Shown here: positions 1 through 4,804 of the stretch, piece by piece
How positions within the stretch are numbered: the first letter of the stretch is position 1
How the letters are laid out: each line of letters opens with the position of its first letter
Source: a virus
Lineage: Duplodnaviria > Heunggongvirae > Uroviricota > Caudoviricetes
Reading direction: 5' to 3' (one strand)
DNA: 4,804 nucleotides
Virus record (IMG/VR): IMGVR_UViG_2751185973_000008
Translations under genes and position numbers: made by a program
Notes under the pieces: model-generated
What the model was told of the DNA's origin: nothing
Database searches by the model: none
What the model saw: only the letters and a program-made list of their open reading frames with translations

Positions 1-12
1 GCTTATAATCTG

Positions 13-285
13 GTGAGATATCAGATGATTAAAATGGCGGAACATCTGAAAGGTTACTGGCCGAATCAACTGAGTTTCTCAGAATCATGCGGAATGGTGA
101 TGAGAATGCTGATGACATTGCAGGGCGCTTCACCGGGACGTATACCGGAGCTGATGCGCGATCTTGCAAGTATGGGACAACTTGTGAAATTACCGACGAG
201 AAGGGGAAGGGCCTTCCCGAGAGTGGTAAAGGAGAGGCCCTGGAAATACCCCACAGCCCCGAAAAAGAGCCAGTCAGTTGCTTAA
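13..285 (+). CDS. Hypothetical ORF, 90 aa, no family recognised; may be the 3' end of a longer gene
   Basis: ORF track. The frame stays open back to position 1 (AYNL precedes the GTG at 13), so the ORF may continue beyond the window. It ends at TAA 283-285, and the same frame continues straight into the invertase remnant. No motif I recognise and no obvious Shine-Dalgarno upstream of 13. Confidence 0.2.
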   Translation: MRYQMIKMAEHLKGYWPNQLSFSESCGMVMRMLMTLQGASPGRIPELMRDLASMGQLVKLPTRRGRAFPRVVKERPWKYPTAPKKSQSVA

Positions 286-609
286 CTGACTGGCATTACT
301 TCTCCAATGGGGCGTTTTTTCTTCCACGTGATGGGTGCCCTGGCTGAAATGGAACGTGAATTAATTGTTGAACGTACACTGGCCGGGCTGGCGGCAGCGC
401 GCGCAAGGGGGCGCACAGGCGGACGTCGACCGAAGCTGACAAAAGAACAGCATGAGCAAATAGCAAGGCTAATCAAAAACGGGCACGACAGAAAACAACT
501 GGCAATAATTTACGGCATTGGCACATCGACGATTTATCGTTATCACCCTGTAGGCGATATACAGACTGAAGAAACAACCGGGCAGACTCAGGAAAATGAA
601 AACCGCTAA
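286..609 (+). pseudogene. 5'-truncated serine DNA invertase (Hin/Gin/Pin/Cin family); only the C-terminal ~107 codons remain
   Basis: Translation from 286 is LTGITSPMGRFFFHVMGALAEMERELIVERTLAGLAAARARGRTGGRRPKL...QLAIIYGIGTSTIYRY, which matches the conserved second half of Hin/Gin-type invertases (SPMGRFFFHVM...LAEMERELI...ERT, then the C-terminal helix-turn-helix). The N-terminal ~90 residues, including the catalytic serine region, are absent: an in-frame TAA sits at 283-285 and no upstream frame resembles an invertase N-terminus. No Shine-Dalgarno precedes the internal ATG at 307. Confidence 0.8.
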
Positions 610-628
610 TCTGACCATTAGCGGTTTT
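599..628. terminator. Bidirectional intrinsic terminator hairpin between the convergent invertase remnant and the gpU-like gene
   Basis: AAAACCGCTAAT (599-610) pairs perfectly with ATTAGCGGTTTT (617-628) around a 6-nt loop CTGACC, giving a 12-bp stem. On the plus strand it is followed by T, then GTGTT. On the minus strand it is followed by CATTTTCC. It lies about 10 nt past the U stop (640-638) and contains the invertase-fragment stop (607-609). Confidence 0.55.
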
Positions 629-637
629 TGTGTTAAA

Positions 638-1132
638 TCAGAACAGCCCTTTAACTGAACTGGCCGCGCTGTTAAGAGATGATGTCACCTTATCTTTGAA
701 GCCGGACAGCATATCACTGAACGATGAGGATTGCAGGCGCTCCCGCAAATCCTCATCACAGCGTTCAAGAGTCAGTGAAAATTCTATCTTTTTCGCCTTA
801 CCGTAGCGATCAAACTCGGAGCGGGTCGTATTCGTTTCAGTCAGGACATACATGCCGTAAATCTGCCCGACGCCATCAATCAAAGGCCAGGGTCGTCCTG
901 TATACGCCTGCGTGGTCAGCAGCGACAGCGACACTTCGCCACCTGTAATTTCAGGATAAAGCACACCAGAAAGAACGATGCGATCATCACCTGCACCGAT
1001 ATACTGCCAGCTTGCTGAACGGTTAACGCGTTCATTTTTCACATGCCGCCAGCTTTTGTTTTGCTGTAACTGCTGATGCGGCAGCGTGCGCAGCTCAAAA
1101 ACAAACATGCCGTAGATCATCATCATGGCCAT
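638..1132 (-). CDS. Phage tail protein, P2 gpU-like, 164 aa from the first ATG; the more likely start is ATG 1126, giving MMMIYG...
   Basis: ORF track. The N-terminus MAMMMIYGMFVFELRTLPHQQLQQNKSWRH resembles the gpU family as I remember it (MMM..G.FVF.L.T.P.Q.L); this is recall, not alignment. The gene sits immediately after the tape measure gene, as U does in the P2 FETUD tail operon. GAGGAG (1140-1135) overlaps the tape measure stop TGA (1141-1139); it is 2 nt from ATG 1132 and 8 nt from ATG 1126. Confidence 0.7.
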   Translation of the reverse strand: MAMMMIYGMFVFELRTLPHQQLQQNKSWRHVKNERVNRSASWQYIGAGDDRIVLSGVLYPEITGGEVSLSLLTTQAYTGRPWPLIDGVGQIYGMYVLTETNTTRSEFDRYGKAKKIEFSLTLERCDEDLRERLQSSSFSDMLSGFKDKVTSSLNSAASSVKGLF

Positions 1133-1134
1133 GA

Positions 1135-1140
1135 CTCCTC
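1135..1140 (-). promoter_or_regulatory. Shine-Dalgarno for the gpU-like gene, overlapping the tape measure stop codon (translational coupling)
   Basis: Minus strand reads GAT TGA GGAGTC ATG GCC ATG ATG ATG; the GAGGAG includes the TGA stop of the upstream gene. Confidence 0.6.
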
Positions 1141-3982
1141 AATCTTTATCGTAAAAACAGCCACGCCCGGCACGGGCGCGCCGTTCCATTTCTGCCCTGA
1201 CCATTTCACCGACCAGTTTCGCCAGTTCGCGGGGATTCTGCGTAACAACGTTATGCAGATGAACATGAATTTCACCACCAAATCCGGAGGCAACAGGCTC
1301 CCGGTTACGGGAAGTTACAGGAACTGATGCCACTGGAGATCGTATAGCCTCCGCCACCGGGCGGGAGCTGGCCGCAACAACAGGGACCAGCGCCGGAGGC
1401 AGCGGAGCCGGAACCACGGGTGTGATATTAATTGCGGGGGCAGGCTTACTGACCTGCGCAATCTTCCGCTCCTGCCACTCCCCACGAACAGCAAGTGCTC
1501 GGGGCAGGTTTTTAAAGACAATATCGCCGGGGCCAATGCGTTTTTTCGTCTCCTCAACCAGCTTACCTGTGTTATCAGCAATTTTGCTGAGTCTGCGCAG
1601 CGTACCGGTATTGCTGTCTGTGAGCGGTTTATTGTCTTTGGGGTTATCACCTCCGGTGCCATTGCCATTTTCCACAGGCTTCGGCGGATTGATTTTCGCC
1701 AGGTCCCCCTGAAGCAAGGCAACCTTGTCCTGAAGAATGGCCGCACGCTGTGCGTCTTCGATTTTCTTGCGCGCCCTTTCCGCTTCATCCGGAAGCACAC
1801 CAAGCTTTTCAAGTATCCACGCCAGCGTATCCAGCAACATTTTTGCAGGTGTCAGAACAAGTTGTAACGCACCGCCAAGAACGTTACCGAATATCTCGCC
1901 AGCACTGGTACATTTATCCAGAGTTTCCTTGCTGGACTCCATCGGTGACAGCAGCGATTTAAACCAGTTAAACACCTGGCTGATCCCACTCCCGATTGCG
2001 TCAAAAACAGGACCAAACCGTTCAAATGTTTCGCGCAACGGGGTCAGCCTTTCCATAATCCCGCTGAACACCCCGGCAAAAAATGCCCTGATGGGATCCC
2101 AGTATTTCCAGATAAGAACGGCAGCTCCGGCAAGCGCAGCCACGATAAGACCAACCGGACTGAACAACGCCCCGATAGCGCCTCCCAGTAAAGAAACGGA
2201 ACCCGTCACCATTCCCCATAGTGCTGGCAGAACCCTGACAGCATTCATTGATCCGGTCAGGAGGGAAAAACCAAGACGCAGTTTTGCCAGCGGGCCAGCA
2301 AGCACACCAATAGCCAGCGACAACGAGCCAACCGTTGCAGTCATTGCCAGCAATGCACCGCCTGCAATCAGTAGCTGGCGCGTCAGTGCGGGATGGGCCT
2401 GCGCCAGCGCCGTCACCTTTGATACCACACGCGTGAGCCACTGCGTGACAGAACGCAGCGGACCGTCAATCAGATCTGCAATGCGGATGCGCAACCCTTC
2501 CCATGCACTGCTGAGTGATTTCAGATCGCCGTCAAGGTTGTTGGCCATAACCTTTGCCGTGCGTTCAGCCTCACCGCGCGCGCCTTCAAGTTCTTTTCTC
2601 AGTTTGGGTAAGGAGCCGTCACCTGCCGCATCAACGAGGGCCATAAATGATGTGAAAGCCTCTTCTCCGGCAATGTCCTTAAAGAACGATACCCGGTCAA
2701 CTTCCCCGTATTTGCGGGTAGCTTTATAAAGGTCAGCCAGCACATCCTCCATCGGGCGCATTTTGCCCCCGGCATCCGAGACAGACACGCCAAGCTCTTT
2801 CAGCGCCTCTGCTGCCGCCTTTGGCGGTGATGCCAGACGAGCCAGGCTGGCACGCATTGCCGTACCAGCATCACTCCCCCTGATACCCATATTCGCCAGC
2901 ACGCCCGCCATCGCTGCGGCCTGCTCCAGAGATATTCCCAGCTTACCCGCCACCGGACCTGCATATTTCATGGTTTCACCCAGTGCGCGAAGGTCAGTGT
3001 TGGTACGGGTAAACGCTGCGGTGAGTGTGTCGCCGACCCGGTCCATCTGGTCAGCAGAAAGACCGAACTGCGTCAGAATATTTGAGCCAATATCCGCCGT
3101 CTCACCGAGGTCCATACCGCCAGCCGTTGCCATGCTCAGTACGCCAGGGAGCGCAGCCTGAATGGCCTGTGGTGTAAAGCCAGCCATTGCAAGAAATGCC
3201 TGTCCACTGGCGGCATCGCCTGCGGTGAACTGCGTTTCAGAGCCAAGTTTTAACGCCTGCTCACGCAGCGCCTTAAACTGCGGGCTGTTCTGGTCGATTC
3301 GCGTCAGTGCCTGAACGCGGAACATCTCTTTGCCGAACCCGATCGCAGGCTGCAAAAAACGCCCGGCAGCATAGCCGCCCGCCGCTGCCGCACCAATTGC
3401 CAGCGCACCACCTGTTTTCAGTTTTCCCGCTGTTTCCTGCGCGCGCGAATACCGCTCACGCGCCCGTGTTACACGCGCAAGCGCCTGCCGTTCGCGTTCA
3501 AGCTGGTTGTTGTACTGTTCGGTGCGTCTGATGGCCTGCTGGATGGTGTTATCGCTGCCTGTCAGGGAAATGCCGTGGCGTTTCAGCTCTCCGCCAAGCT
3601 CCCGCATTTTCTGAATTTCCCGTGTGCGCGATTCATTCAGGCGTTCAAGCCGGGTGCTTAACTGCTGCATCAGCTTTTGTTGTTTTTCGCTGAGCACTGT
3701 ACCCGTGCGTTGTAACTGATTAAGGGCGTTAAGCTGGCGTCGTGCTTTCACGATGCCCGCATCCGCTTTACTGACAGCGTCACGGGCGCGCTCAAATGAT
3801 CGCGCCTGACGCTCGAGATTTTTGATCGCCCCCTGCGTTCGCTGGATGGAGTCACCAAACTGCCCCATCAGGCGGCGGGCGTTTTCGGCAGGCCGGGTCA
3901 GCCTGTCAACGGCGCTGAAAGCGACCCGGATATCAAGAGTCTTCATTGTCTGCATTCCCGCTACGAAGTGCCGCTCGCTCAC
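1139..3982 (-). CDS. Phage tail tape measure protein, 947 aa from GTG 3982; a start at ATG 3946 (MKTLDIRVAFSAVD...) or ATG 3955 is possible
   Basis: Single 2844-nt ORF. The N-terminal third is coiled-coil-like and rich in Q/R/E/L/A. The centre has long Gly/Ala-rich hydrophobic stretches (LLIAGGALLAMTATVGSLSLAIGVLAGPL...GLIVAALAGAAVLIWKYW, about 2099-2390). The C-terminus has a Pro/Ala/Val-rich low-complexity segment (about 1315-1452). It sits directly downstream of an overlapping chaperone pair and upstream of a gpU-like gene. The only ambiguity is the start codon. Confidence 0.9.
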   Translation of the reverse strand: MSERHFVAGMQTMKTLDIRVAFSAVDRLTRPAENARRLMGQFGDSIQRTQGAIKNLERQARSFERARDAVSKADAGIVKARRQLNALNQLQRTGTVLSEKQQKLMQQLSTRLERLNESRTREIQKMRELGGELKRHGISLTGSDNTIQQAIRRTEQYNNQLERERQALARVTRARERYSRAQETAGKLKTGGALAIGAAAAGGYAAGRFLQPAIGFGKEMFRVQALTRIDQNSPQFKALREQALKLGSETQFTAGDAASGQAFLAMAGFTPQAIQAALPGVLSMATAGGMDLGETADIGSNILTQFGLSADQMDRVGDTLTAAFTRTNTDLRALGETMKYAGPVAGKLGISLEQAAAMAGVLANMGIRGSDAGTAMRASLARLASPPKAAAEALKELGVSVSDAGGKMRPMEDVLADLYKATRKYGEVDRVSFFKDIAGEEAFTSFMALVDAAGDGSLPKLRKELEGARGEAERTAKVMANNLDGDLKSLSSAWEGLRIRIADLIDGPLRSVTQWLTRVVSKVTALAQAHPALTRQLLIAGGALLAMTATVGSLSLAIGVLAGPLAKLRLGFSLLTGSMNAVRVLPALWGMVTGSVSLLGGAIGALFSPVGLIVAALAGAAVLIWKYWDPIRAFFAGVFSGIMERLTPLRETFERFGPVFDAIGSGISQVFNWFKSLLSPMESSKETLDKCTSAGEIFGNVLGGALQLVLTPAKMLLDTLAWILEKLGVLPDEAERARKKIEDAQRAAILQDKVALLQGDLAKINPPKPVENGNGTGGDNPKDNKPLTDSNTGTLRRLSKIADNTGKLVEETKKRIGPGDIVFKNLPRALAVRGEWQERKIAQVSKPAPAINITPVVPAPLPPALVPVVAASSRPVAEAIRSPVASVPVTSRNREPVASGFGGEIHVHLHNVVTQNPRELAKLVGEMVRAEMERRARAGRGCFYDKD

Positions 3983-4471
3983 GCCAGCTAACCACTTCGC
4001 AGGGCGTCATCATGAAGATTTCGGCGGGCGACCAGTTAAAAATGGCGGCAATATCCGCCACCAGATCTTCGATGTGCTCAAAGCACACCAGGGTGATTAC
4101 GCTGCCGTCTCCTGCACGCTCTTCGCGCCAGAGTCTGGCTCGCTCATAAAATTTACAGCCACAGCGCACAACTGAATAAAATCGCGTGACGACATTTTTT
4201 TAATCATCACTTCATCCAGTCGTGGCGAGGTCACGCGAGGCAACAGCGTGAACATGGTATCCGCTTTCAGATTCAGCACATCAGACAGCGACAGACCACG
4301 CAGGGATCCAGCCTGCTCAATAGCCCCGGTGATCTCCACATACGTGATTTTTTCGCCACCACGCTCAATTGGTCGGGTCAGTTTTACGCCACGTTCGACA
4401 GCCATATCCTCAACTGCCGTCACATTATCCGCCACGGTGTTATTCCGGGTTTCAGTATCGATGTCTTTCAT
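3933..4471 (-). CDS. Tail assembly chaperone fusion E+E' (gpGT analogue) made by programmed -1 ribosomal frameshift; about 179 aa if the shift is at 4154-4148
   Basis: The -1 frame relative to E is open from TAA (4202-4200) to TGA (3935-3933) and overlaps the last ~35 codons of E and the first codons of the tape measure gene. E codons start at coordinates of residue 1 mod 3 and E' codons at residue 2 mod 3, which on the minus strand is exactly a -1 shift. The in-frame heptamer A AAT TTT (4154-4148) reads AAT TTT in the E frame and AAA TTT after the slip, continuing YERARLW in E'. Confidence 0.6.
4097..4471 (-). CDS. Tail assembly chaperone, P2 gpE-like (lambda gpG analogue), 124 aa
   Basis: ORF track. 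Strong Shine-Dalgarno AGGAG (4483-4479) lies 7 nt before ATG 4471. A small ORF immediately upstream of the tape measure gene whose 3' part is overlapped by a -1 frame ORF is the conserved chaperone architecture of long-tailed phages. The translation contains SLRGLSLSDVLNLKADTMFTLLPRVTSPRL. Confidence 0.8.
   Translation of the reverse strand: MKDIDTETRNNTVADNVTAVEDMAVERGVKLTRPIERGGEKITYVEITGAIEQAGSLRGLSLSDVLNLKADTMFTLLPRVTSPRLDEVMIKKMSSRDFIQLCAVAVNFMSEPDSGAKSVQETAA
4148..4154 (-). other. Candidate -1 slippery heptamer A AAT TTT for the E to E' shift
   Basis: X XXY YYZ pattern in the correct phase within the E/E' overlap. An alternative is the A7 run at 4201-4195 (ATT AAA AAA ATG in the E frame), but the -1 frame has a TAA at 4202-4200, so the P-site re-pairing would be imperfect. 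Confidence 0.4.
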
Positions 4472-4478
4472 CTGTTGT

Positions 4479-4483
4479 CTCCT
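4479..4483 (-). promoter_or_regulatory. Shine-Dalgarno for the E-like chaperone
   Basis: Minus strand reads ACTGAAAAGGAGACAACAG ATG; AGGAG with a 7-nt spacer. Confidence 0.7.
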
Positions 4484-4526
4484 TTTCAGTCAGAGGCGAC
4501 GCACTGCGCCGCCAGCATATTACTTA

Positions 4527-4584
4527 TCAGCCAAGCCCAAGCGCGGAACGGATGCGATCGGGCACAATGTCCTTGCCGTCCTTC
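4527..4584 (-). pseudogene. Possible 3' end (last 18 codons) of a tail tube (P2 FII-like) gene cut by the IS1 insertion
   Basis: The minus-strand frame ending at TGA (4529-4527) reads KDGKDIVPDRIRSALGLG and is the most protein-like of the three frames between IS1 and E. Its position, directly upstream of E with a 55-nt gap, matches the FII-E order in P2-like tail operons. The link to FII is positional only, with a vague recollection of the family's C-terminus. Confidence 0.3.
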
Positions 4585-4607
4585 GGTGATGCTGCCAACT
4601 TACTGAT
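4585..4607 (+). repeat. IS1 left terminal inverted repeat (IRL, 23 bp)
   Basis: Exact IS1 end sequence GGTGATGCTGCCAACTTACTGAT. The flanking 9 bp on the outside are CCGTCCTTC (4576-4584). Confidence 0.9.
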
Positions 4608-4639
4608 TTAGTGTATGATGGTGTTTTTGAGGTGCTCCA

Positions 4640-4804
4640 GTGGCTTCTGTTTCTATCAGCTGTCCCTCCTGTTCAGCTACTGACGGGGTGGTGCGTAACG
4701 GCAAAAGCACTGCCGGACATCAGCGCTATCTCTGCTCTCACTGCCGTAAAACATGGCAACTGCAGTTCACTTACACCGCTTCTCAACCCGGTACGCACCA
4801 GAAA
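4640..4804 (+). CDS. insA: IS1 InsA (transposition repressor / N-terminal part of the InsAB' transposase), first 55 codons; partial
   Basis: A GTG start at 4640 is preceded by GAGGTG. Translation is [55 protein letters not shown], the InsA N-terminus with its zinc-finger cysteines. It is missing from the ORF track because it has no stop inside the window. Confidence 0.9.

Follow-up and report, generated by a model that had tools for sequence, protein, structure and literature searches.

Introduction

In phage P2 itself the tail gene U is directly followed by D on one transcript, and P2-type phages reach the GpE-family (E') frame by programmed frameshift. Ser9, the nucleophile of the serine invertase Gin, sits in the N-terminal catalytic domain of the protein, which also has conserved Arg and Asp residues, and the invertases Gin, Cin, Pin and Hin can stand in for each other. 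IS4 typically duplicates about 11-13 bp of its target. Phage P88 (genus Xuanwuvirus) has a different tail layout, with the order H, G, inverted G'/H' cassette, invertase (+), then U, T, E', E, FII and FI (-), then D (+); D is divergent from FI, and none follows U. The same order was found in E. coli prophages. P88, an induced phage, lyses E. coli hosts, and Citrobacter phage PhiSM is described as temperate and fully functional (PMC5285337; PMC6456863); an arrangement that ends at U and keeps D separate therefore works.

We examined a 4,804-nt stretch of DNA (IMG/VR record IMGVR_UViG_2751185973_000008), referred to throughout, at its full length, as the window. An initial annotation had taken the P2 order as its yardstick, which is right for P2 itself, and had seen in this locus a tail operon deprived of D. 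We instead favor, at a probability of roughly 0.9, insertion of IS4 into the invertase gene of a degraded P88-like (P2-family, Xuanwuvirus) prophage from a Shigella-type host; that D does not follow U is how this group is laid out. Comparison of sequences establishes the identity of every piece of the window, both IS junctions, the target duplications and the synteny with intact phages. In the sequence of events that we propose, the starting point would be a P88-like tail operon FI-FII-E-E'-T-U, lying on the strand opposite to its P2 counterpart and ending at U. U and a convergent Gin-type invertase gene would have a common hairpin terminator, the invertase would flip the neighboring tail-fibre segment, and D would be a separate gene on the far side of FI. 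The 1426-bp IS4 would then have entered the invertase gene at codon 97, in gene-wise orientation, duplicating 13 bp (CTTCTCCAATGGG). Because the window begins inside IS4, it shows the right end of the element and the 3' half of the invertase gene only; lacking catalytic domain, promoter and ribosome-binding site, that half is a dead pseudogene fragment. At its opposite end the window has a separate IS1 insertion, which cuts the gene for the tail tube.

Tail genes and the place of D

Positions 299-4585 of the window are covered in full by phages 503458, 520873 and P884B11 (99.5-99.8% identical), by Citrobacter phage PhiSM (97.6%) and by P88 (95%). Identity of 95-99.8% to these five named phages, with the same order from the invertase through FII, places the locus in the P88-like group (Xuanwuvirus). 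Still closer are five Shigella prophage loci (L003, L004, L005, L006 and L008), each 100.000% identical to window 299-4804 and each with an intact 199-aa invertase. These sister loci were retrieved by way of the exact tape-measure protein, named 'MULTISPECIES: phage tail tape measure protein [Shigella]'.

The tail genes of the window lie on the minus strand. The gpU homologue, last gene of the operon, occupies 638-1126, with the open reading frame extending to 1132 (162 aa as annotated in relatives; Pfam Phage_P2_GpU, E = 5.5e-39). The gpT homologue, a tape measure protein of 935 aa, is at 1139-3946 (Pfam PhageMin_Tail, E = 3.7e-58), and the gpE' segment, a GpE-family frame, is at 3933-4088 (Pfam Phage_P2_GpE, E = 2.4e-12; annotated 'GpE family phage tail protein' in the relative L001). 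The gpE homologue, a tail assembly chaperone of 124 aa at 4097-4471, was assigned from synteny with P2 and P88 and a weak Pfam Phage_TAC_7 match below the curated cut-off.

A hairpin at 599-628, flagged as terminator-like, is common to the convergent invertase and U genes, overlapping the stop codon of the former and lying 9 nt beyond that of the latter. Its folding energy is -16.7 kcal/mol on the plus strand and -15.7 on the minus strand (z about -4.4 to -4.7); on the plus strand it has 15 pairs counted from 596, and none of 200 shuffled sequences folded as well. The stem is identical in P88, L001 and L014. This predicted bidirectional intrinsic terminator most likely ends both convergent transcripts. 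Rfam and tRNA scans of the window found no RNA genes. The succession that the initial annotation had described, a U-like gene, a strong hairpin and a plus-strand invertase remnant, was thus recovered in full, by the GpU, folding-energy and Resolvase/HTH_7 results.

A P2-type F operon would have D immediately downstream of U on the same strand; in the window the hairpin and a convergent gene follow U. The 100%-identical loci do have a gpD homologue (Pfam Phage_GPD), on the plus strand and about 2.5 kb beyond the window's right end. The initial annotation had named a gpD homologue just outside the window on the minus strand as a finding that would change its reading of the operon; the gene does lie outside, but on the plus strand and past the right end. 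In PhiR44_2 and Chuche, which have no invertase, another gene stands beside U; the inverted FI-U block again ends at U, and D is beyond FI. Intact and infectious relatives share the U-hairpin-invertase junction and have D elsewhere, so the invertase is not in the place of D, as had been supposed, and D was not deleted. A tail operon that ends at U, with no D behind it, is normal for the P88-like group.

The whole FI-FII-E-E'-T-U block is inverted with respect to P2 in all P88-like phages examined (P88 27600-34433, here L002; L033; L034), and we found no paper describing this inversion. A conserved 157-bp intergenic region separates FI and the divergent D in these phages. The P2 late-promoter motif is TGT-N12-ACA; the 157-bp region of four relatives has no exact match to it.

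The right end of IS4

The first 298 bp of the window (plus strand) are the last 298 bp of IS4, positions 1129-1426 of the element, without mismatch to a 1426-bp reference copy (L023 373-1798) whose coding sequence is annotated 'IS4-like element IS4 family transposase'. Thousands of IS4 copies in E. coli genomes are 100% identical to window 1-300, and all are annotated as IS4 family transposase. The final 94 codons of the transposase occupy 1-282, with the stop codon TAA at 283-285 as in the annotated reference copy, and the 18-bp right terminal inverted repeat occupies 281-298. The element is IS4 on all three counts: the terminal repeat, 298/298 identity to the reference right end, and a transposase coding sequence that ends at 285.

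The open reading frame at 13-285 is the C-terminus of this transposase. Pfam and NCBIfam scans of 13-285 and of 1-285 gave no match, and the assignment was made because the DNA is identical to annotated IS4 copies. The initial annotation had noted here an unrelated frame, in phase with the invertase and closed by the TAA; phase and stop codon hold, and the frame is now identified. The agreement of reading frame between transposase and invertase is a coincidence and yields no fusion. Homology to the invertase had also been said to start abruptly right after the TAA. The start is indeed abrupt, but it falls at 298/299, 13 nt past the stop codon, and the 13 bases in between are part of IS4's terminal inverted repeat.

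A second terminator-like hairpin, of 11 pairs, was predicted at the IS4 end (269-294). It overlaps both the transposase stop codon and the terminal repeat and is terminator-like on both strands. This hairpin could limit transcription across the IS boundary.

IS4 and the invertase gene

In the translation of 286-609 (+) Pfam Resolvase is matched at its last 39 positions only (106-144 of 145; E = 2.3e-10), followed by an HTH_7 domain (E = 2.7e-13). The fragment encodes the long E helix and the HTH_7 DNA-binding domain found in serine invertases, and it aligns to the DNA-binding domains of Gin and Hin. Invertase sequence picks up again at base 299, within codon 97 of the 199, and its 3' half on the plus strand (299-609, assigned by Pfam and DNA identity) runs from a portion of codon 97 through codons 98-199 to a stop codon at 607-609. 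L001 and L003 have the gene intact, at 600 nt, and its 3' part there matches this half at 100% identity; ATG 307 is the internal Met100 of the invertase. With residues 98-199 only, the window fragment has no catalytic domain; it is a remnant of a member of the serine-invertase family and not a functional member. The Fis-dependent recombinational enhancer typical of this subfamily belongs to the 5' part of the gene, which lies outside the window. Its earlier description as a catalytically dead C-terminal half, chiefly helix-turn-helix, agrees with the domain matches, and both the nearest intact invertase (the 199-aa protein of L003 and the other 100%-identical loci) and the exact breakpoint could be located.

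The right-hand copy of a 13-bp IS4 target-site duplication, CTTCTCCAATGGG, lies at 299-311 of the window. The N-terminal product of a simple insertion was predicted for duplications of 11, 12 and 13 bp, and all three were looked up in the protein collection. The 13-bp product, 109 aa made up of invertase residues 1-100 and the IS4-encoded GNADQLRIS, is exactly the public protein SJE90233.1, named 'DNA-invertase [Shigella sonnei]'; the 11-bp and 12-bp products are not in the collection. Two contigs that encode the 109-aa fragment, L024 and L025, end in the left end of IS4 directly after the same 13 bp (junctions at L024 9805-9817 and L025 1078-1090). These contigs come from samples other than that of the window (SRR7988730; S. 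sonnei GCA_900159145.1). L025 follows L003 at 100% identity as far as 13636, and the match of the window to L003 starts at 13648, so that the two flanks overlap by exactly 13 bp (L003 13636-13648). When the left flank of L024 is joined to the window and one copy of the duplication is removed, the 600-nt gene is restored with 2 mismatches. The target resembles other IS4 sites, in that the duplication begins with CT and a T-run follows; seven other IS4 copies examined have 12-13-bp duplications at similar target sites.

The duplication at the invertase is assembled from the right junction of the window and the left junctions of L024 and L025, no one record spanning both, and since the window ends inside IS4 the far side of the insertion lies outside it. 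The 31-nt right junction between IS4 and invertase had 0 matches in genome, viral and metagenome contig collections, and no complete E. coli genome covers at least 80% of window 1-700. An IS4-mediated deletion or inversion, following the insertion, might have separated or removed the N-terminal half and the fibre segment in the genome of the window. Hosts of this type are rich in insertion sequences (IS4 at up to 18 and IS1 at up to 34 places per genome), and sister loci have several other IS-associated changes. We nevertheless judge such a later rearrangement improbable: the two independent contigs, one of them 100% identical to the lineage of the window, keep the N-terminal half joined to the left end of IS4, and the window has no sign of a rearrangement. 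We infer, with strong support from these contigs, that the N-terminal half is kept directly beyond IS4 in the window's own genome.

The same IS4 position with the same 13-bp duplication occurs in two backgrounds, L025, of the window's lineage, and the S. sonnei contig L024, about 95-98% identical; the lysis module of L024 differs from that of the window's lineage. Either independent hits at a preferred target or a single insertion spread by recombination would account for this. Since even L024, at an identity of only about 95-98%, has IS4 at this site, a matching site is by itself no proof of a single shared event.

Draft contigs that start 0-25 nt from the IS4 site (L017-L022) were considered as signs of an IS hotspot. 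This was rejected: contig ends show partial invertase proteins of many different lengths, and the invertase gene is in its 5' half almost the same as Mu gin. Breaks in assembly at a repeated gene most likely account for where these contigs start.

The intact invertase gene (L003 13338-13937) is a mosaic, in which DNA identity to Mu/D108 gin (95.5%) stops at about window position 365; the IS4 site is close to this boundary. In another relative an IS26-type element with an IS6/IS240-family transposase (L016 1390-2172) lies 6 nt upstream of the IS4 site.

The tail-fibre switch

Contig L024, one of the two with the N-terminal invertase fragment, carries baseplate genes, H, G and the inverted G'/H' cassette. 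A 65-nt inverted repeat contains two inverted gix-like sites of the 26-bp crossover type (6361-6386 and 9436-9461), beyond IS4, that bound a tail-fibre segment of roughly 3 kb which is invertible. They have 1-2 mismatches to gixL. The window has no gixL, hixL or hixR site within 8 mismatches and no adjacent invertible segment, and within the same limit it lacks the gix/hix-like site expected had the invertase made the FI-U inversion. The crossover sites that the initial annotation had envisaged in the flanks are thus absent from the window but present, as an inverted pair, in L024. By the evidence of this contig the cis elements of the fibre switch are placed just beyond IS4, and the fibre genes, whose possible deletion the initial annotation had raised, are there too. 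Splitting of the invertase should leave the switch frozen, barring the action in trans of some other invertase.

These results also bear on the proposal that a recombination or deletion scar fused two phage modules, removed D and the fibre genes, and left half an invertase in the place of D. It drew on the P2 arrangement, in which D comes immediately after U, and on the abrupt break in homology at 298/299. The sequence upstream of the break, however, is no phage module: it is IS4, inserted with a 13-bp duplication and present here with its right end, and the N-terminal half of the invertase survives in matching contigs. Moreover, intact, infectious relatives have the identical U-hairpin-invertase junction with D elsewhere, a gpD homologue is present beyond FI in the 100%-identical loci, and fibre genes with their invertible segment are present beyond IS4 in partner contigs. 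Such a scar is almost certainly not the origin of this locus, and the IS4 insertion is preferred.

Expression of the invertase remnant

The initial annotation had called the remnant a pseudogene for want of a Shine-Dalgarno sequence before ATG 307, and this was upheld: the sequence upstream of that ATG (CATTACTTCTCCA) has no purine-rich Shine-Dalgarno motif, and no sigma-70-like promoter was found in 1-1300. The terminator-like hairpin at the IS4 end is just upstream of the remnant frame. Gene callers do predict the 100-aa remnant frame, in 62 contigs, but the same 100-aa frame is predicted wherever the gene is broken, whether by a frameshift, by IS26 or by a contig end. The prediction accompanies every type of break and so carries no functional weight. 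Judged from these sequence features, translation of the remnant is very unlikely, and it is a pseudogene fragment.

The frame is intact from Met100 to the native stop and has a complete HTH_7 domain. Together with the gene calls, this would be the case for a remnant expressed from ATG 307 as a 100-aa protein of E helix and HTH that binds gix-type sites and acts as a regulator or as a dominant-negative partner of other invertases. Against it are the missing ribosome-binding and promoter-like sites, the hairpin at 269-294, the occurrence of the gene calls at any break, and the decay of the rest of the prophage; we hold it to be highly improbable. A broader proposal would have the E helix and HTH made at a low level by read-through from IS4, binding the gix-like sites of the fibre segment and blocking or modulating inversion by other invertases of the cell, with the 13-bp site a recurrent IS4 hotspot hit independently in two P88-like prophages and so repeatedly freezing the switch. 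This combination we regard as very doubtful, if slightly less so.

IS1 and decay of the prophage

Of the tail tube gene FII, the window keeps at its right end only the last 18 codons and the stop (4527-4584, minus strand; residues 153-170 of 170, 18/18 identical to the C-terminus of the L001 tube protein). Beyond it are the first 220 bp of IS1 (4585-4804, plus strand), in which the left inverted repeat begins at 4585 and insA at 4640; positions 4640-4804 match the IS1 family transposase of NCBIfam and the IS1 zinc-binding domain. The target duplication is of 9 bp, CCGTCCTTC, with one copy at 4576-4584, and in L003 the complete 768-bp element is seen with the 9 bp duplicated. The window's IS1 is 100% identical to other IS1 copies in L003-L008. 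IS1 cuts the tube gene after codon 152, and all five 100%-identical sister loci have the same insertion.

Other genes of the sister loci are damaged as well. The gpD gene (L003 5685-6791, minus strand) is 97.8% identical to that of P88 and has an in-frame stop at codon 41, and D is probably a pseudogene in the window's lineage. The ogr gene is shortened by an IS3-family element, and a fibre gene is interrupted by IS1. In a prophage in decay, selection on the invertase remnant is unlikely.

Between gpD and ogr the sister loci have a 1039-aa open reading frame (L003 2314-5433, minus strand), for which Pfam, PADLOC and NCBIfam all gave no match. Among 5426 complete E. coli genomes only 5 contain its DNA, and they annotate it inconsistently, as 'MFS transporter' or as hypothetical. 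The frame is an orphan cargo gene that occupies an accessory prophage slot.

Comparison with known systems

IS4, IS1 and the P88-type layout were all known already, and these sequences are in public records as partial or pseudogene entries. The locus is one more case of IS-driven prophage decay in an IS-rich enteric host, and carries little biological weight. It does offer two lessons for annotation: an abrupt loss of homology beside an unrelated in-frame open reading frame should be tested against insertion sequences first, and expectations of gene order taken from P2 fail for P88-like phages, whose tail operon normally stops at U, with D transcribed on its own.

No difference was detected from IS4 (1426 bp, IS4 family), of which the window holds the right end only. 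The intact invertase of the sister loci is closest to Gin of phage Mu (PDB 4m6f, 3uj3), with which it aligns over 183 residues (E = 3e-100). The two are identical at 102 of the first 103 residues but only about 55-60% identical beyond residue 103, where the sister-locus protein also has a 16-aa C-terminal extension. Relative to the P2 F operon (FI FII E E' T U D), the E, E', T and U genes of the window are homologous and keep the same internal order. P2 has D after U on one transcript and lacks an invertase, whereas all P88-like phages examined stop at U and have D divergent from FI. P88, 503458, 520873, P884B11 and PhiSM share with the window the order and orientation of invertase, hairpin, U, T, E', E and FII; their invertase and tube genes are intact, while those of the window are cut by IS4 and IS1.
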